In this document: positions 5,452 through 32,481 of the stretch, in pieces
Position numbering within the stretch: position 1 is the stretch's first letter
Layout: every line of letters starts with the position of its first letter
Assembly (NCBI GenBank): GCA_034530875.2
Contig: JAVRCJ020000017.1
Coordinates: 32,001 to 96,000, forward strand
DNA: 64,000 bases
Origin: Nostoc sp. DedSLP01
Lineage (GTDB): Bacteria > Cyanobacteriota > Cyanobacteriia > Cyanobacteriales > Nostocaceae
Direction of reading: 5' to 3'
The notes under the pieces: generated by a model
What the model was told of the DNA's origin: nothing
Database searches by the model: none
What the model saw: only the letters and a program-made list of their open reading frames with translations
Program-made: the position numbers and the translations under genes

Positions 5452-5527
5452 ATTTGCTTGTTTAGGTGTCTTCAATTTGCTAAACATACTTAGCAAAAAA
5501 TATTACGATTACATAACGTCTCAGAAG

Positions 5528-5557
5528 TAGCCATCCTTAGGGATGTGCTATTTTTTT
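5528..5557 (+). terminator. intrinsic terminator after ssb
   Basis: tagc-catcc / ggatg-t-gcta stem followed by T7. Confidence 0.6.
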
Positions 5558-5584
5558 ATCTAGGTTTGCAAAACTTCATGATAA

Positions 5585-6793
5585 ATGACTACACCTGATG
5601 AATTAGTTACCATTTTTGACCGTATCCGCGATGGTATTCAAAACGATGGGGATATTTTGTTACTAAGGCAATGGCTGAAAAATAGTGATGGACACAATGT
5701 TTTACAAGTCGGGAAAAATATTATCAATATTGCTGATGGTAAGGATATTCATATTGGCGATCGCACTTACTATAATACAGATGCTCAAACTATTAAGGCT
5801 GTTATTCAAGAAGTATTTAAAGACTTGATTTCAAGTCTTAATATAGAAAAATTACCTCAAGAAAATTCTGCCCAAGCTAATTTATTAGCTCGAACTAAAA
5901 AGAAAGATTTAGTAACAAAAACTAACTTACAAAATGAAAAAAATCCTACTTCAGGAATCCCAGCTATCACCAAGTTTGAGTTTGAAGTAGTAACTTTAGA
6001 TATTCAAGGAATAGAAACTAAACTTTGCCTGAAGCAAGCTGATTATTTTATAGAAAATCTCCCAGACGATTTTATATTAGAAATGGTTTCTATTGCTGGT
6101 GGTAAATTTCAAATGGGCGCACCTCAAGATGAGCCTGAATCACTTGAAGATGAACGTCCCCAGCACATAGTTACTTTAAAACCCTTTTTTTTGAGTAAAT
6201 ATCCTATTACTCAAGCACAGTGGAGAATTATTGCAAATCTCCCCAAAATTAATCGCCGTCTTGAAGTGGAGCCATCTTGTTTTAAAGGAGATAACTTGCC
6301 CGTAGAAAGAGTTTCTTGGGATGATGCACAAGAGTTTTGTGAGCGGCTTTCACGAGCAACAGGAAGAAAATATCGCTTACTTAGCGAAGCTGAATGGGAA
6401 TATGCTTGTCGCGCTAAAACATCAACACCATTTCATTTTGGCAAAACAATTACACCGAATTTAGCAAAATATTTTGTACAAAATGAAAACATTAATAGTA
6501 TTTCTCCCCAGCAGACAATAGAGGTTGGCAGTTTTCTACCCAATGCCTTTGGAATATATGATATGCATGGATTAGTTTGGGAGTGGTGTGAAGACTGCGA
6601 ACACGAAGACTATCAAGACGCACCATCAGACGGTAGTTCTTGGGTAAATAATGGAAATTCGGAATATAGAATTTTGCGCGGAGGTTCCTGGGATTCTCCT
6701 GCTCATCTGTGTCGTTCTGCATCTCGTTTTTCAGAAATGGCAAGCGTTACTGATAGTAGATTTGGTTTTCGGGTTGTCTGTTCTTCAATATAA
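5585..6793 (+). CDS. EAD10-like N-terminal domain fused to an FGE-sulfatase (SUMF1-family) domain
   Basis: C-terminal FGE motifs GGKFQMG, YPITQAQW, LPVERVSW, RLLSEAEWEYACRA, DMHGLVWEWC, RGGSW and GFRVV. The N-terminus IFDRI...LRQWL...QVGKNIINIADGKDIHIGDR resembles cyanobacterial effector-associated domain 10. Confidence 0.85.
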   Translation: MTTPDELVTIFDRIRDGIQNDGDILLLRQWLKNSDGHNVLQVGKNIINIADGKDIHIGDRTYYNTDAQTIKAVIQEVFKDLISSLNIEKLPQENSAQANLLARTKKKDLVTKTNLQNEKNPTSGIPAITKFEFEVVTLDIQGIETKLCLKQADYFIENLPDDFILEMVSIAGGKFQMGAPQDEPESLEDERPQHIVTLKPFFLSKYPITQAQWRIIANLPKINRRLEVEPSCFKGDNLPVERVSWDDAQEFCERLSRATGRKYRLLSEAEWEYACRAKTSTPFHFGKTITPNLAKYFVQNENINSISPQQTIEVGSFLPNAFGIYDMHGLVWEWCEDCEHEDYQDAPSDGSSWVNNGNSEYRILRGGSWDSPAHLCRSASRFSEMASVTDSRFGFRVVCSSI

Positions 6794-6803
6794 ATTTAGT
6801 CAA

Positions 6804-9800
6804 TTATGGTGTAATTAATTGAATGATTCTTGCTTTTATGTCTTCGATAGACAATGAATCAGAAACTTGTATACTTGTCTCTCGACGGATTTGAACTTTG
6901 GAATTTATCAATGACCTGCTACACTGCTTTCTATAAGGATGAGAAAGCCAATTCCAACTTCCTACAATAGCAAATTTAGTATCACAGACCAAGATTTTTT
7001 CATTAGTCCCTCTACTTTCTATAAATGTTTTTTTGCCTAAACGATTTAAATATGAACCTGGATACTGACAAAACAATTCCTCCAAATTCTTCTCAATCTC
7101 TACGTCGTTGCCATCGTTTTCTTCACTACTTTTACTACCATAAATAAGTCTAACTTTAACTCCTTTTTCTAAAGCTGAAACAATATCATTTACAAACCGT
7201 TTTGATTCATCATCGCGAATCCAAGGCGTAACAATTGCCAATTCTTCTTCAGCTTGCTCAATAGCGTCTCTAAAAACTTTTAAATGGTCACAATCATAAA
7301 TTAGGGTAGCTCCAGGCTGAGGCTGCGGAATTTCAGCTTCAGATTTGTAATCTAAAATATCTCCATATTCCCGAATGTGTTCAACAAGCTGACGAGTAAG
7401 CTTACCTTTTTCTAACCTGTAAAGGTTCCCAACTAAAATAAACAGTTCTTTGGCTCTCGATACGGCAACATTGAGTAGATTTGGGCGATTGTTAATCCAG
7501 TTAACATTATCTTGTGTTCCACATACTTTTGTAGATAAGATAATGACCTTTTTCTCAGAACCTTGGAAAGTATGAATTGTCCCCACAGATTTTGCATCTA
7601 ATCCAGAGAATTTTTGAGTTAGATATTCTCTCAAAGCCCTAGCATGAACGTTAAAAGGTGAAATAACACCGATATTTTGTAATGAGTAACCTTGCTTTTG
7701 CAAGTGCTGGATTACATCACCCACAGCAGAAACTTCTTCTTCATTAACATTACGGCTAATACTTCCCTCAACATGGTAAGCAACTAAGTTGGAGTTTACT
7801 AAAGAAGTAACTGGTGGTGTTTTTACCTCTAAACCATACTTAGCAATAGCATTACAATATTCAATTATGCTAGGTTGACAGCGGTAATGTTCAATTAAAC
7901 AAATACCTTGACCTTGATCATTATCTTCTCCACTTGCTCCAGCAGCGCGGTGATAAGTAGTCGCGCTATATTCTTCCTCTGGACTGTAACGGTGGTAATC
8001 AATTTCAGTTAATCCTGTGTCAAGAAAGGCTGTTTGGCGGTATTCATCCCGTCTTTGGTTACTGAGAGTTATTACAGGCTCTATTTGTAGGGGGTCACCT
8101 ACAATAATAGCTTTGCGCGATCGCACTAATAATGGAAAAGTCTTGTGCAGGTCAATCATTCCCGCTTCATCTACAATTGTGCGGTCAACACATTCCTCAA
8201 CCCAAGGGAGTATATTTCTGATGGAAAGTAATGTACTTGTAATCACAGGAAAAAATAAACTCACATTTTTAATATGTTCGTTCAGATTTTCTGCCATCTT
8301 CTTTTTATCTTTCCAATTTCCTCCAGCAAGAACATTTGAATATAATTCCAAAGAACCTTTTACCCGCTCTTTATAACACAGTGCTTGCTGAGTCAGAAAT
8401 TTCCGCGATAACTCAAATAGCTCTTGCTGCTGGTTATGAAAATTTTGATGAAAATAAGCATAAAAATCTTCTAGAGGAGTAGCCAACCTATTTTCTAAAA
8501 AAGTTAACTCTCTACTTGCTTTGTCTCTTTGTTGCTCTGTACTCGCTATATCTCCAGAAAGTTCTTTTAATCTGTTTTGTATAGTCTTTAGCTCATCCGC
8601 CTTTGTCAATCGTTCACTAACTAACCATGCTTGTTGAATTAAATCATTGCGAGTTTCAATAACTTTTACAGGAAATATAGTGTTCACAGTGTTTAAGATT
8701 GCTGGTTGGCAAGCTTCGGCCGTTTTTGTCACAATCTGTTTTTCTGTTCTGCCAGAAAACCAAAGTAATATCTTCTTCCACCAAGAGATTTTTCCTTCAG
8801 GTAGCCGCATCTTAGCAGTATTTAGTATTACTTCAAGTTGTCTATAAGCTTCTACTGGAAGTTGGTCATAGTCGGATAATTGTCTTGCTCGTCTCTGAGA
8901 ATTACTTTTAGCAGTTAATATTTCTTCTAAATACTGTTCAAGTGCTTGTATTTTTTCTACAAGTTGAGTAAGTCGTTCTTCATCTAAAGTTCTTTGACGA
9001 CGTTCTTCTAAAAAATTTGACTCTTCAAACTCTAATTCATTTTTAATCTGTTTGATTTTCTGTATTAAAGTATTCAAATAAGTTTGATCGAAACGATTTA
9101 TTTGTAAATAATCAAGCGCTTGCTGTAAATCTTCTAAAGCACCTCCAGGAGATTGGATATTAAATTTACTTCCTCCTTTAAGATAAAGAAAATCATGTTC
9201 TAAGGATTCATCTTTTAACCAATCATCTAGCTTTTCAATAACATTTTCAACTGCTTTATTATTGGTACTACTAATAACGGTTAAATTATTGATGTCTTGG
9301 TTACTTTCAATTAGACGGAGTGCGCGTTGCACTACCTGTTGAGCAATGAGGTGAAGGATGAGGGTAGTTTTCCCAGAACCTGGTGGCCCTTGAACAGCGG
9401 TTATCGGTTCGGTTTGGGCGTGTTTTAATGCTGTTGATTGCGAGTTAGTCGGTACATTGGTTGGGAAAGCACCCATATAAGTAACTTCGTGTTCTGGAAG
9501 TCGAGGTACACCGAACAAATATTCATAAGCTGGATGTTTTGGCTTCAACCAATTTTTTGAGCCTGACTTGATTTCTTTTAAGTCTTGCTTGAGATTCCTA
9601 GAATATATTGCTCCTGTAAACGCAAACAAGTATGGCTGTCGTTGAATTTGGTAGCGCGATCGAGGGATGCTAACGTTTCGCATCCACTCCTCATAAGTCT
9701 GAAATTCTTGCCCAAATGTAGTTTCAAGAAATCGTCGCAGTCCATCTTGGGTAATCAACCGCTCACGTTGTTCGTCATCTAATCCCAGGAAGGTAGCTAG

Positions 9801-10175
9801 GTTATTTCCTGCTTCCATCAGTTTTAATTCGTCGAGACTCCACCCTGCTTCTCGATACTCTCCTTTGAGAATAGATGTAACATCCAAACTAAACAGAGGA
9901 CAAAAATAAGATTTTTTATTGTCTACATCAATAAATTGGGGAAAAGACAACGCCCATAAAGTTTCCTGTTGACTTTGTTGCTCTTTGGCAACTTTTTGTT
10001 GCAGTTCTAAAAAAATGGTTGGTTCAATGAATACATGGTCACTTACTAGCTTTATACCACGCTGTTTTACTGTATCTTGACTAGCTGCTTCAATCCTAGC
10101 GTTACTGTAATCATCCAAAGCAATGTAATCGAACCAAGCATTGAGAATTGCATCTACTTTGCTAGCTGCGTTCAA
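6804..10175 (-). CDS. SF1 (DNA2/NAM7/Upf1-like) helicase with a coiled-coil insert and C-terminal PLD-like domain
   Basis: QGPPGSGKTT, IVDEAG, VGDPLQ, HYRC, GVISPF, TIHTFQGSEK and NVAVSRAK. The C-terminus has IVTPWI and TNEKILVCD...GSWNW. TTG start with a GGAGG RBS. Confidence 0.88.
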   Translation of the reverse strand: MNAASKVDAILNAWFDYIALDDYSNARIEAASQDTVKQRGIKLVSDHVFIEPTIFLELQQKVAKEQQSQQETLWALSFPQFIDVDNKKSYFCPLFSLDVTSILKGEYREAGWSLDELKLMEAGNNLATFLGLDDEQRERLITQDGLRRFLETTFGQEFQTYEEWMRNVSIPRSRYQIQRQPYLFAFTGAIYSRNLKQDLKEIKSGSKNWLKPKHPAYEYLFGVPRLPEHEVTYMGAFPTNVPTNSQSTALKHAQTEPITAVQGPPGSGKTTLILHLIAQQVVQRALRLIESNQDINNLTVISSTNNKAVENVIEKLDDWLKDESLEHDFLYLKGGSKFNIQSPGGALEDLQQALDYLQINRFDQTYLNTLIQKIKQIKNELEFEESNFLEERRQRTLDEERLTQLVEKIQALEQYLEEILTAKSNSQRRARQLSDYDQLPVEAYRQLEVILNTAKMRLPEGKISWWKKILLWFSGRTEKQIVTKTAEACQPAILNTVNTIFPVKVIETRNDLIQQAWLVSERLTKADELKTIQNRLKELSGDIASTEQQRDKASRELTFLENRLATPLEDFYAYFHQNFHNQQQELFELSRKFLTQQALCYKERVKGSLELYSNVLAGGNWKDKKKMAENLNEHIKNVSLFFPVITSTLLSIRNILPWVEECVDRTIVDEAGMIDLHKTFPLLVRSRKAIIVGDPLQIEPVITLSNQRRDEYRQTAFLDTGLTEIDYHRYSPEEEYSATTYHRAAGASGEDNDQGQGICLIEHYRCQPSIIEYCNAIAKYGLEVKTPPVTSLVNSNLVAYHVEGSISRNVNEEEVSAVGDVIQHLQKQGYSLQNIGVISPFNVHARALREYLTQKFSGLDAKSVGTIHTFQGSEKKVIILSTKVCGTQDNVNWINNRPNLLNVAVSRAKELFILVGNLYRLEKGKLTRQLVEHIREYGDILDYKSEAEIPQPQPGATLIYDCDHLKVFRDAIEQAEEELAIVTPWIRDDESKRFVNDIVSALEKGVKVRLIYGSKSSEENDGNDVEIEKNLEELFCQYPGSYLNRLGKKTFIESRGTNEKILVCDTKFAIVGSWNWLSHPYRKQCSRSLINSKVQIRRETSIQVSDSLSIEDIKARIIQLITP

Positions 10176-10318
10176 AATTACCTCCAGGTTGCGCTACTGG
10201 TTTGAGTTTTCTATGTATTATTACTAGTTAACTGGGATACTAAAAAAAATTACGCTGAAATATATACTTTTTTTAGACATGGGTAGTCATCACTCATTCT
10301 TCTATTCTTTTGCACCAG

Positions 10319-11302
10319 TTATTTGTTGTAATTACCACCAATATGAATATCACCAGCTTTCTCAATATTTGTAATGTTATTTGCCACTTGCTTACCTATG
10401 AATTGACCAATTTTGTAAATCTTTTGCGTTGCTTCATCTTTGGCTTCATCCCATCCTTTATCAGGTAAACCTTTGCCGCCCCGAAGTTTAGCAATTACAA
10501 AATCTCCTGCATCCATATCAAAATGCGGAGTTTGTTCGGCATTACACAGCTTACGCGCACTTTCAGGTACAGTTTTTCCCAAATAATTCATTAAATTAGA
10601 AACCCGAACTTCTGTATCTCCAGGCTGATTCCCAGCACCTTGCAAAGCTTCCAAAAAATGATAAGTATAGATGCTACTTGATTCATCTTTTATCCAAGAT
10701 TTTTGCTCAGCTTTTGAAGAAGTAAAAACTACTCTCCCTTCACCTTGTTTTAAATCATCAATTAAAACTTTAGATGGAGCAACTCTAATAAAATCTTCAA
10801 ATTCTTGTTCTAGTTCTAAATCAGCCTCTTTAGAAGTTGCCATCCCAGCAGCATGACAACTATCAATCACAACCAATAAACGTTCTGCCTTTATTTGTCG
10901 TAATGCATCTGTGAAAGTTTCTGCCGCTAGTGCAGAAGTAACAATTTGATTAGGCTTAATATCATGTTGTGCTAAATAATAATGTTGTGTTTTTTTATCT
11001 AAAAACCCATGCCCTGAGTAGTAAACAAACACAGTAGCATTGCGATCGCTAGCTGATTTTTCTTTTAACCAGTTTAATTCATCTAAAATTCCCTTCTTAG
11101 TTGCACCTTGATTATTTAAAACTCGAATATGCTCTTTATCATTAGGATAAGCACATAATTCAGTATCAATTAAAGCAGTATAAATTGCCTGAGTATCTTT
11201 TACGGTTACTGGGAGTGACAATGAACTATAACGTGACTCGCCGACACCAATTAATAATGCATAACCGTGAGTAAATGTATTGGTCACTTTTATATCAGCC
11301 AA
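10319..11302 (-). CDS. caspase-like (peptidase C14) protease with a short C-terminal RHIM-like tail
   Basis: YALLIGVG, catalytic dyad YYSGHG / IDSCHA, and SIYTYHFLEALQG. Ends NNITNIEKAGDIHIGGNYNK. Confidence 0.88.
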   Translation of the reverse strand: MADIKVTNTFTHGYALLIGVGESRYSSLSLPVTVKDTQAIYTALIDTELCAYPNDKEHIRVLNNQGATKKGILDELNWLKEKSASDRNATVFVYYSGHGFLDKKTQHYYLAQHDIKPNQIVTSALAAETFTDALRQIKAERLLVVIDSCHAAGMATSKEADLELEQEFEDFIRVAPSKVLIDDLKQGEGRVVFTSSKAEQKSWIKDESSSIYTYHFLEALQGAGNQPGDTEVRVSNLMNYLGKTVPESARKLCNAEQTPHFDMDAGDFVIAKLRGGKGLPDKGWDEAKDEATQKIYKIGQFIGKQVANNITNIEKAGDIHIGGNYNK

Positions 11303-11342
11303 TTAAATGAATTCTACTTAAGTAATTATACAGGCAATATTT

Positions 11343-11999
11343 TTATCTATCTAAATTTAACAAAGTGTTAACTAAATCACTAGCAATGACAACATAAACA
11401 CCATTAACGTGATTGCTAGCAATATCTACATTACCCTTGGTAAAGCAAAGCAGTGCAGTCACCCACCGCGCATTTTTTAAATGTTTTACTTCTTTAGCTT
11501 GGCCTTTAACTTTGCTAATTAAATCGCCTTCGTTAAAATCAAAAGTACTTTTGCCGTAGCGTTTACGCAGACAATTATTTTCATAAACTTTAGTACCACC
11601 GTGAGACTTGACGTCAACTACATACCAGTTGCCTTGAGGTGAATGCAACACTACATCTGCATCTCCCCATCTCTGAATTCGGAGGTTATATTCTATTTGC
11701 CATCCTTGATGTTGCAAGGGACGTAGTAATGTCGCTACTTCAGTTTCAGCCTTAGCACCACGTTGAGCATCACCTGCTCTTTTCATTAAATATTGTCCTT
11801 TACAAAAGGAGTAGCACGAACCTACTAATCCCCCAAGCAAGAGCAACATTCCCACAAAAGAAGTACTTAAAATACTGAATAATAGTACTGTTCCCGTCAA
11901 AACAACTATTGCAAAAGCATAACTGAGCATCGCAGACTGGCGACGTTCTTTAAACAATTTACGGATTTGTTCTCCCGGATGTTTTTTTCGTCGTGGCAA
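11343..11999 (-). CDS. NERD (nuclease-related domain) protein with two N-terminal hydrophobic helices
   Basis: Two TM-like segments, then GAKAETEV, GDADVV and VVDVKSH (PD-(D/E)xK-type NERD pattern). Confidence 0.8.
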   Translation of the reverse strand: MPRRKKHPGEQIRKLFKERRQSAMLSYAFAIVVLTGTVLLFSILSTSFVGMLLLLGGLVGSCYSFCKGQYLMKRAGDAQRGAKAETEVATLLRPLQHQGWQIEYNLRIQRWGDADVVLHSPQGNWYVVDVKSHGGTKVYENNCLRKRYGKSTFDFNEGDLISKVKGQAKEVKHLKNARWVTALLCFTKGNVDIASNHVNGVYVVIASDLVNTLLNLDR

Positions 12000-12213
12000 G
12001 TTATGTAAATACTGAAACTATGAAAATAGAGGATACCATAAGGTTCGCAATTTCCAATCCTAACCAGTCACACATCGCAGATGCATATATTATTGTGTAC
12101 TTTCAGCAGTGAAAAAACTGAGAAACAATGCAAAAGTTAAAATTACTGACATCTACATCAAAACTACTGTTAAAATCCAAATAATTTTCAGTTAAAACTC
12201 CTACTCGACTCCT

Positions 12214-31401: not shown

Positions 31402-32481
31402 TTAGAAGTGCAAAGCACCCAATTCTTGACGAAGAGTAGCAATGTCACGTGGAAATTGCGAACCATTACCATTGGGTGAAGTGTAACCTAAGGCTTGCAG
31501 GTCTGCTTCCACCATTAAACCAACTAGTTGTTCAAATGTTACTGATGGTGTCCAGCCTAAATTCTGCCGCGCTTTGCTAGAGTCGCCAATCAATAACTCT
31601 ACTTCGGCAGGACGCAGATAACGTTCGTCAAATTCGACATAATCTTGCCAATTAAGATTGACATAACCAAATGCCAACTCTAAAAATTCCCGCACTGAGT
31701 GGGTTTCACCAGTTGCAATTACGTAATCATCTGGCTGGTCTTGCTGCAACATTAGCCACATTGCTTTTACGTAATCTTTGGCATAGCCCCAATCTCTTTT
31801 GGAATCGAGATTTCCCATGTAAAGCTTTTTCTGCTTTTTGGCGACGATGTTGGCAACTGCCATCGTAATTTTACGCGTTACAAAGGTTTCACCGCGACGT
31901 GGCGATTCGTGGTTAAAAAGTATACCGTTACAAGCAAATAAATTGTAAGATTCGCGATAATTTACTGTTTGCCAGTGGGCATAGACTTTGGCGCAAGCGT
32001 AAGGACTGCGGGGATAAAATGGTGTTGTTTCACTTTGCGGGATTGCTTGTACCAAACCGTACATTTCTGAAGAGCCAGCTTGGTAAAACCGCACTTGGAT
32101 TCCGGTACGGTGCTGGTAGTCTCGAATTGCTTCTAACAAACGTAGGGTTCCCATTCCCACAGAGTCTACGGTATATTCTGGTGAGTCAAAGCTGACTCTA
32201 ACATGGGATTGAGCGCCGAGGTTATAAATTTCTACTGGTTGTACTTCTTCTAATATGCGTCGCAGTGTTGTTCCGTCTGTCAAGTCTCCGTAGTGGAGGA
32301 ATAACTGCACGCCTTCTTTGTGAGGGTCTTCGTAAATGTGATCGATGCGGTCTGTATTGAAGGTGGAAGTTCGGCGAATTATACCATGAACTTCATAACC
32401 TTGTTCTAGCAAATACTCACTCAGATATGAACCATCTTGACCGGTTATACCAGTTATTAATGCTCGCTTTCTTTGCGTCAT
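31402..32481 (-). CDS. gmd: GDP-mannose 4,6-dehydratase
   Basis: [25 protein letters not shown] and [17 protein letters not shown]. Confidence 0.97.

Follow-up and report, generated by a model that had tools for sequence, protein, structure and literature searches.

Mokosh defence is abolished by mutation of the PLD active site (10.1101/2022.05.11.491447), and PLD nucleases use an invariant HxK(x4)D motif (10.1101/2025.07.10.664194). EAD10 is described as a mixed alpha+beta coupling adaptor, with neighbouring EAD copies resembling each other (PMC7159879), and the FGE-sulfatase (FGS) domain as an invader-binding lectin fold that recruits effectors (PMC8195603); FGE-like domains also act as STAND sensors (PMC13581612). 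Amyloid signalling has been shown in antiphage defence for Bab/Agp (10.1101/2024.11.07.622273), and protease-released effectors with FGE-fused proteases are known (10.1101/2025.11.14.688446). Here we describe a four-gene block in 64,000 nt of Nostoc sp. DedSLP01 DNA (contig JAVRCJ020000017.1, forward-strand positions 32,001 to 96,000; hereafter the window, whose coordinates are used throughout). The block holds an EAD10-FGS protein, a Upf1-like helicase ending in a PLD-fold domain, a caspase-like protease and a NERD nuclease.

On balance, with little better than even confidence, we read the four genes as one system, in which the helicase would sense, the FGS protein relay and a shared motif cluster the caspase, with proteolysis leading to arrest or death. 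From sequence, the helicase, whose PLD domain carries a His-to-Asn change, likely acts as an invader sensor or decoy, and the locus likely defends by switching on a protease, not by cutting nucleic acid. What the locus adds is that a helicase/FGS half, with its predicted dead PLD, and an EAD10-tailed caspase half stand together in a single block, and that the motif has no further carrier in the genome. The features are as follows.

5532..5545, forward strand: terminator-like hairpin after ssb, the left border of the block
5585..6793, forward strand: EAD10-linker-FGS protein, 402 amino acids (aa), FGE-sulfatase/C-type-lectin fold, predicted relay or receptor
5690..5770, forward strand: beta-rich second half of EAD10 (residues 36-62), the receptor-side copy of the shared motif
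6080..6778, forward strand: FGS domain (residues 166-398)
6804..10175, reverse strand: Mokosh type II-like protein of 1123 aa, a Upf1-like SF1B helicase ending in a pseudo-PLD
6807..7307, reverse strand: PLD-fold domain of the helicase, with Asn1058 (codon 7002-7004) at the catalytic-His position
8376..9086, reverse strand: predicted long coiled coil inserted in the helicase (residues 364-600)
10319..11302, reverse strand: caspase-like (C14) protease, 327 aa, dyad His98/Cys149 intact
10322..10417, reverse strand: C-terminal tail of the caspase, the effector-side copy of the EAD10 beta motif
11343..11999, reverse strand: transmembrane (TM)-NERD protein, 218 aa, with a hydrophobic N-terminus (predicted membrane) and a NERD PD-(D/E)xK nuclease

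The helicase and its FGS partner

The best named match of the helicase-PLD protein is PADLOC MkoC of Mokosh type II (E 4.4e-99, over residues 243-1087), although a preliminary description of this DNA had recognised no named system. The structural model (predicted local distance difference test score, pLDDT, 87) comprises an N-terminal domain, two RecA domains, the coiled coil at residues 364-600 and the PLD fold, and its Foldseek matches are SETX, IGHMBP2, Aquarius and Upf1. For residues 1-240, the ESM Atlas gave only leads under 0.9 (DUF4011/AAA_11 N-termini). In an alignment of 68 homologues, chosen from 120 listed and including the query, Walker A, Walker B and the later SF1 motifs were invariant (68/68), and the coiled-coil insertion was among the most variable parts.

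The same alignment speaks against the PLD domain being a nuclease effector, the role that the preliminary description had given it. The nucleophilic His is found in 0/68 homologues, its position being taken by Asn in 66 and by Glu or Asp in two, and the motif Lys is Arg in 46/68. The best PDB match of the domain is a NucT chain that shows Asn at the same position. For Helicobacter pylori NucT, the H124N protein is inactive and still binds single-stranded DNA (ssDNA) at about 2 nM (PMC5714352). Because this His-to-Asn change costs NucT its activity and spares ssDNA binding, the PLD domain is predicted to be catalytically dead across the clade, binding without cutting. An ordinary Mokosh type II protein, with a PLD made active through an altered site such as invariant His1079 and with neighbours that are mere passengers of the island, would fit the MkoC match, the retained D1065, GSxN and E1099, and H1079 itself (68/68). 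We nevertheless regard it as highly unlikely. The loss of the His, the Lys-to-Arg changes and the NucT result all argue against it; H1079 co-occurs with invariant C962, H964 and C1085, a set that looks more like a possible metal (zinc) site; and the near-obligate FGS partner would be left unexplained.

The partnership is seen across the 55 helicase loci that were mapped (L110 is a near-duplicate of L125). A convergent FGS gene adjoins the helicase in 53 of these, including 40 of the 42 away from the site next to ssb; of the two loci without it, one lies at a contig end (L143) and the other keeps both genes as a truncated remnant (L147). A caspase gene occurs in 34/55 loci and NERD in 25/55, with a distant NERD in three more, and all four genes occur together in 22/55, 11 of them among the 42 loci away from ssb, with one more after edge extension. 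In the 301-genome family set, a caspase match lies within 10 kb in 25/42 helicase genomes, among the matches listed. Helicase and FGS thus form the fixed core, with caspase and NERD variable. The full-length helicase itself is patchy, being found in 14/91 same-genus genomes, 42/301 family genomes and 7/401 genomes across the phylum.

These counts bear on the earlier proposal of a single system running from a helicase or FGS sensor to effectors. The recurrence of the genes together across genera and at many sites supports it, as does the link between FGS and caspase through a shared motif and fusions; it has to be amended in that the PLD is predicted not to be an effector and in that caspase and NERD come and go. 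They also make it hardly credible that four unrelated genes each arrived on their own in a hotspot flanked by ssb and the ABC gene. The site is variable and partial derivatives exist, as such insertions would produce, but the co-occurrence elsewhere, which had been set beforehand as a check, contradicts independent insertion of the helicase, FGS and caspase genes and leaves it possible for NERD only.

A sister clade (L099-L109) has helicases of ~960 aa without the PLD, which still match MkoC at ~1e-82. These loci adjoin relaxase or parA/parB genes, most of them parA/parB, and are plasmid-like. Since none of their 11 loci has an FGS neighbour, FGS goes with the pseudo-PLD, a correlation that comes from one evolutionary contrast only.

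The FGS protein carries a full EAD10 domain at its N-terminus by Pfam. In four loci (L117, L120, L124 and L126) the EAD10-FGS gene that belongs to the helicase has a caspase gene 28-71 bp upstream, and in three others (L095, L098 and L138) the helicase-facing FGS is fused to a caspase. In L111 it is fused to a papain-like domain related to anti-phage ProA, and L133 uses EAD1 in place of EAD10. Overall, helicase-linked FGS proteins have a motif matching that of the caspase in 40/53 loci and a fused protease in four. A protease or an adaptor on the helicase-facing FGS is the constant theme. Alpha/beta-hydrolase genes lie directly upstream of the helicase-facing protease-FGS fusions in L095 (12889-14088), L098 and L111 (6080-7537).

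Two other roles for the FGS protein were considered and rejected. A formylglycine-generating enzyme needs two Cys in the C-terminal stretch; here there is one, and the NCBIfam enzyme models all score far below cut-off. Targeting by a diversity-generating retroelement (DGR) was rejected because no template repeat was found, there being no second copy of the FGS 3´ end in the assembly, and because the C-terminal region resembling a DGR variable region (VR) is about as conserved as the core (column conservation 0.80 vs 0.82). A retron-type reverse transcriptase query of the assembly found nothing, DGR reverse transcriptases not being searched by family. The lack of any sign of DGR diversification in FGS would suit a ligand that is conserved and perhaps self, for example the helicase.

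A motif shared by the caspase and the FGS protein

The caspase ends in ~25 residues similar to residues 36-62 of the FGS protein. This tail maps to positions 35-63 of Pfam EAD10 (E 0.004; an orthologue gave 5.5e-6), and 10 of 11 such stretches match. A hidden Markov model (HMM) built from caspase tails alone gave two significant matches among 17,523 open reading frames (ORFs), namely the caspase and the FGS N-terminus (iE 3.9e-5; the next match in the genome was at 1.2). The tail is conserved in nearly all caspase homologues among the matches listed. Its pLDDT is <50 in the monomer model, which suggests that it is likely disordered in the monomer. As for the protease, the His98/Cys149 dyad is invariant in 55/55 sequences and the model has a caspase/paracaspase-like fold by Foldseek; alignment against PDB sequences gave no match. 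The likelier start is the GTG at 11287 (322 aa), which fits record P0001 and a nearly invariant Met at position 6. The assembly holds one paralogue, 52% identical and without the tail. A different protease also carries the motif: L139 (5520-6866) encodes a CHAT protease with a C-terminal EAD10 beta motif; its gene lies upstream of one for a large EAD10 protein and beside that of the helicase.

Tailed caspases were collected from 58 loci, after removal of six duplicates, and a protein with the motif close to its N-terminus is present in 54 of these. The partners include EAD10-NACHT-HEAT, NB-ARC-TPR and WD40 proteins as well as MoxR systems. For the 17 distinct tail/partner pairs lying <=35 bp apart, cognate similarity was 44.8 vs 36.8 +/- 2.0 for shuffled pairs (p 5e-5); long-insert tails went with long-insert partners in 5/6 and Phe-core tails with Phe-core partners in 4/4. 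Long-insert variants occur on several branches of the caspase tree.

How the two copies would engage is the point on which two versions of the single system part. N (2.6x), I (2.5x), H and G are over-represented in the motif, and P and L under-represented; the bias for N, I and G and against P and L is shared with BASS motifs. Entries C03_s050 and C03_s111 of the BASS set (PMC8086366 supplement) are, by eye, in register with the common caspase tail, C03 being the class that we infer to be BASS3; His stands here at the BASS3 Gln position of the core, which is Gln in many relatives. The core string was not found in the part of the BASS dataset text covered. From sequence alone an amyloid-like mode is plausible but unproven, and its main rival is plain beta-strand docking, in which the system is the same and the caspase tail would add a strand to a folded EAD10 one to one, with no amyloid-like polymer. 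We think docking possible, if doubtful. In its favour, the tail corresponds to the latter half of an adaptor that is already catalogued, published work treats EADs as coupling adaptors with like neighbouring copies (PMC7159879), and Pfam RHIM run on the 11 motif stretches gave one match, which was not significant (E 0.29). Against docking, the effector has only the bare beta motif, at its extreme C-terminus and unstructured in the model; the receptor copy lies near the N-terminus, which is the BASS layout; and there is the register with several C03-class entries.

The insertion site and the accessory genes

An ORF check found the four ORFs intact, where the preliminary description had placed them and in the orientations it gave. 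The gaps are 10 bp between FGS and helicase, 143 bp between helicase and caspase and 40 bp between caspase and NERD. Its domain assignments likewise agree with Pfam (E-values: EAD10 2e-29, FGE-sulfatase 7e-52, AAA_11/AAA_12 ~1e-20, PLDc_2 1e-9, Peptidase_C14 2e-20 and NERD 1e-11), and the block is flanked, as described there, by ssb with its terminator hairpin and by a peptide ABC ATPase gene. The four genes had also been called visibly AT-rich. Their GC content is indeed lower than that of the genome (36.5% for the block vs 40.9%), but single genes lie at the 6th-22nd percentile among 4357 ORFs of >=200 aa (0.6th-16th for GC at third codon positions), a low but modest and not extreme value. 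A promoter scan was uninformative (24 sites vs 23.1 expected).

A comparison of the ssb-pepABC slot (window 5452-12213) among close relatives, which the preliminary description had suggested, showed that the slot is variable. All seven helicase-less relatives examined have other cargo or nothing there, and in L074-L080, L168 and L169 it is empty, holds other cargo or holds deletion derivatives of the block. The site is occupied by two different helicase lineages. The other cargo includes genes of 585-609 aa, 368 aa and 95 aa. Among named matches, close homologues of the block proteins come from Nostoc and related filamentous cyanobacteria. In this assembly, helicase and NERD are single-copy. 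The FGS protein has four paralogues; three clustered FGS-domain genes (604-1008 aa, C4:119730-128806) lack the motif. Two distant SF1 helicase matches (24% identity to the query) lie on C17 near 95183-96004, at the end of the window, and at C4:16815-18041.

NERD has a hydrophobic stretch at about residues 22-65 and retains the catalytic residues D113/D129/K131. It is accessory, because it is found in 13/127 same-genus genomes and once alone at the ssb site. A conserved 305-aa protein (L151:4374-5291 and L170:1410-2327; fused to the caspase in L093:7122-8753) is encoded directly upstream of the EAD10-tailed caspase in 28/45 loci away from ssb. It had no Pfam, NCBIfam, PADLOC or PDB sequence match and fell only into unnamed ESM Atlas clusters. 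We consider it a candidate caspase substrate or effector; it is absent here, leaving NERD as probably the only local candidate substrate. In L071 (4985-11366), a Retron type XIII-like reverse transcriptase gene (PADLOC 9e-141) and an HNH gene with a small partner lie between the helicase and the EAD10-NACHT-HEAT gene, and similar arrangements occur in L097, L130-L132 and L148.

Several observations weigh against the single system as we read it. Neither this genome nor any of the 13 ssb-site loci has the 305-aa gene, so that the usual target of the caspase may be missing here. Of the 58 tailed-caspase loci, 24 have no helicase, and most of these have NACHT, NB-ARC or MoxR systems as neighbours, which makes the caspase a mobile module of promiscuous association; among helicase loci it is absent from 21/55, some of which end at a contig edge and three of which have fusions in its place. 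At the ssb site, deletion derivatives retain NERD alone (L168, 93% identity) or FGS and NERD beside a disrupted caspase gene (L169). Lying on opposite strands, the FGS and helicase genes are not co-transcribed, and kept adjacency alone is no proof of contact. As to the motif, three of the 17 tight pairs mismatch in a core residue (standard tail, Phe-core partner) and one in length, ten looser pairs match only weakly (p 0.046), and, kin not being independent, the caspase tree leaves only a few independent events behind the tight pairs. Unlike BASS, the motif shows neither an excess of Q nor a deficit of K, and the RHIM result above points the same way. Finally, the PDB comparison shows Asn in place of the His in a poxvirus PLD-family protein as well, which is reported to retain lipase activity, so that Asn need not mean an inert site.

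Some of these points would be expected if two independent modules had met in a defence island: a helicase-FGS pair that needs no partner and might, for instance, use ATP to strip phage complexes, and a mobile EAD10-caspase module, with or without NERD and the 305-aa protein, that uses NLR receptors, the caspase being an orphan here. The helicase-less caspase loci, the variable content of the slot in the seven relatives, the two helicase lineages at the site and the missing 305-aa gene all fit this alternative. We judge it unlikely, since most helicase-linked FGS proteins bear the caspase-matching motif or a fused protease, this genome has no other motif carrier and the caspase is intact in most ssb-site relatives.

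Proposed mechanism and comparison with described systems

In the single system that we favour, the helicase would move along single-stranded RNA or DNA made during infection, with its dead PLD binding without cutting. The ligand of the FGS protein would be the helicase in its engaged state or a phage factor trapped there, and the FGS protein would cluster. The EAD10 beta motif would template the disordered caspase tails into a stacked beta-sheet, as BASS and RHIM motifs do, and proximity would activate the protease. Cleavage of an effector by the caspase would follow, in this locus perhaps of the membrane-tethered NERD nuclease, and would end in arrest or death of the infected cell. A bolder version, which we hold to be quite unlikely, would have the nuclease of an entire cyanobacterial Mokosh clade turned decoy and guarded, in the manner of plant NLRs, by a lectin-fold receptor, with a RHIM-like amyloid seed firing the caspase and the caspase releasing membrane-tethered NERD, an NLR-free death pathway of filamentous bacteria that would run from RNA helicase through amyloid and caspase to DNase.

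If the favoured reading is true, a nuclease-helicase defence has been rewired from direct nucleic-acid cutting to protease signalling. It would also supply a concrete upstream trigger for cyanobacterial caspases, which have long been proposed as drivers of programmed death and, to our knowledge, mostly lack known activators. The idea that EAD10 is an amyloid-like motif would be directly testable with two 25-residue peptides from its sole carriers in the genome. The locus is an unusually clean test case because it has no other EAD10 proteins.

The literature covered on Mokosh, EAD10, amyloid signalling and caspase/FGE-sulfatase contains no description of this combination; that coverage did not extend to figure logos, Table S2 of 10.1101/2020.01.06.895854 or the source data of two eLife papers, which may list motif pairs or the neighbourhood. 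Mokosh type II is likewise a single gene with an N-terminal RNA helicase and a C-terminal PLD domain, and the ATP-binding motifs of the Upf1-like helicase are intact here. It differs in that the HxK(x4)D site is not present here, the His that Mokosh needs being Asn across the clade, and in that Mokosh type II is a stand-alone gene, whereas this helicase has a near-obligate convergent FGS gene and frequently a caspase and NERD.

The EAD and FGS-centred systems (PMC7159879, PMC8195603) share with this locus an EAD10 placed N-terminal to FGS with a matching copy on a neighbouring effector. They list caspases and FGS among their components and occur in filamentous cyanobacteria. At least two components of the locus carry an EAD, the full EAD10 on the FGS protein and its beta half on the caspase. 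Unlike those systems, the locus has no STAND, MoxR-vWA or GTPase core, its NTPase being an SF1 helicase without an EAD. No EAD-NTPase fusion is carried by this genome, although relatives have them, such as the EAD10-NACHT-HEAT protein in L071. The caspase has only the beta half of EAD10, at its C-terminus, and in contrast to FGS-centred systems no DGR template was found here and the VR-like region is conserved. The parts of the two papers covered make no mention of a pairing with this helicase.

BASS3/RHIM-like motifs (10.1101/2020.01.06.895854) and Bab/Agp (10.1101/2024.11.07.622273) show the same arrangement of a beta-prone motif of ~22 residues at the effector C-terminus and the receptor N-terminus. 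The composition (rich in N, G and I, poor in P and L) is also alike, as may be the core tetrad, of phi-Q/H-phi-G type, and CHAT protease effectors are known there. The differences are that the receptor here is an FGS protein and not an NLR or TGP, that the effector is a C14 caspase and not a Bell domain, and that the two genes are convergent and 3.5 kb apart as against an adjacent, usually collinear NLR gene, although the NLR layout is found in relatives. In addition, His replaces the BASS3 Gln in the core, and the motif ends a few residues past the core. The protease-effector modules (10.1101/2025.11.14.688446), in which proteases fused to sensors, including FGE domains, free latent effectors, are approached by L095 and L098, where an alpha/beta-hydrolase adjoins a caspase-FGS fusion; they differ in that genes for MBL, hydrolase, Pepco or EACC1 were not identified here. 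By analogy with these systems, the locus may be described as a Mokosh-like front end joined to a back end resembling EAD/BASS-coupled death.

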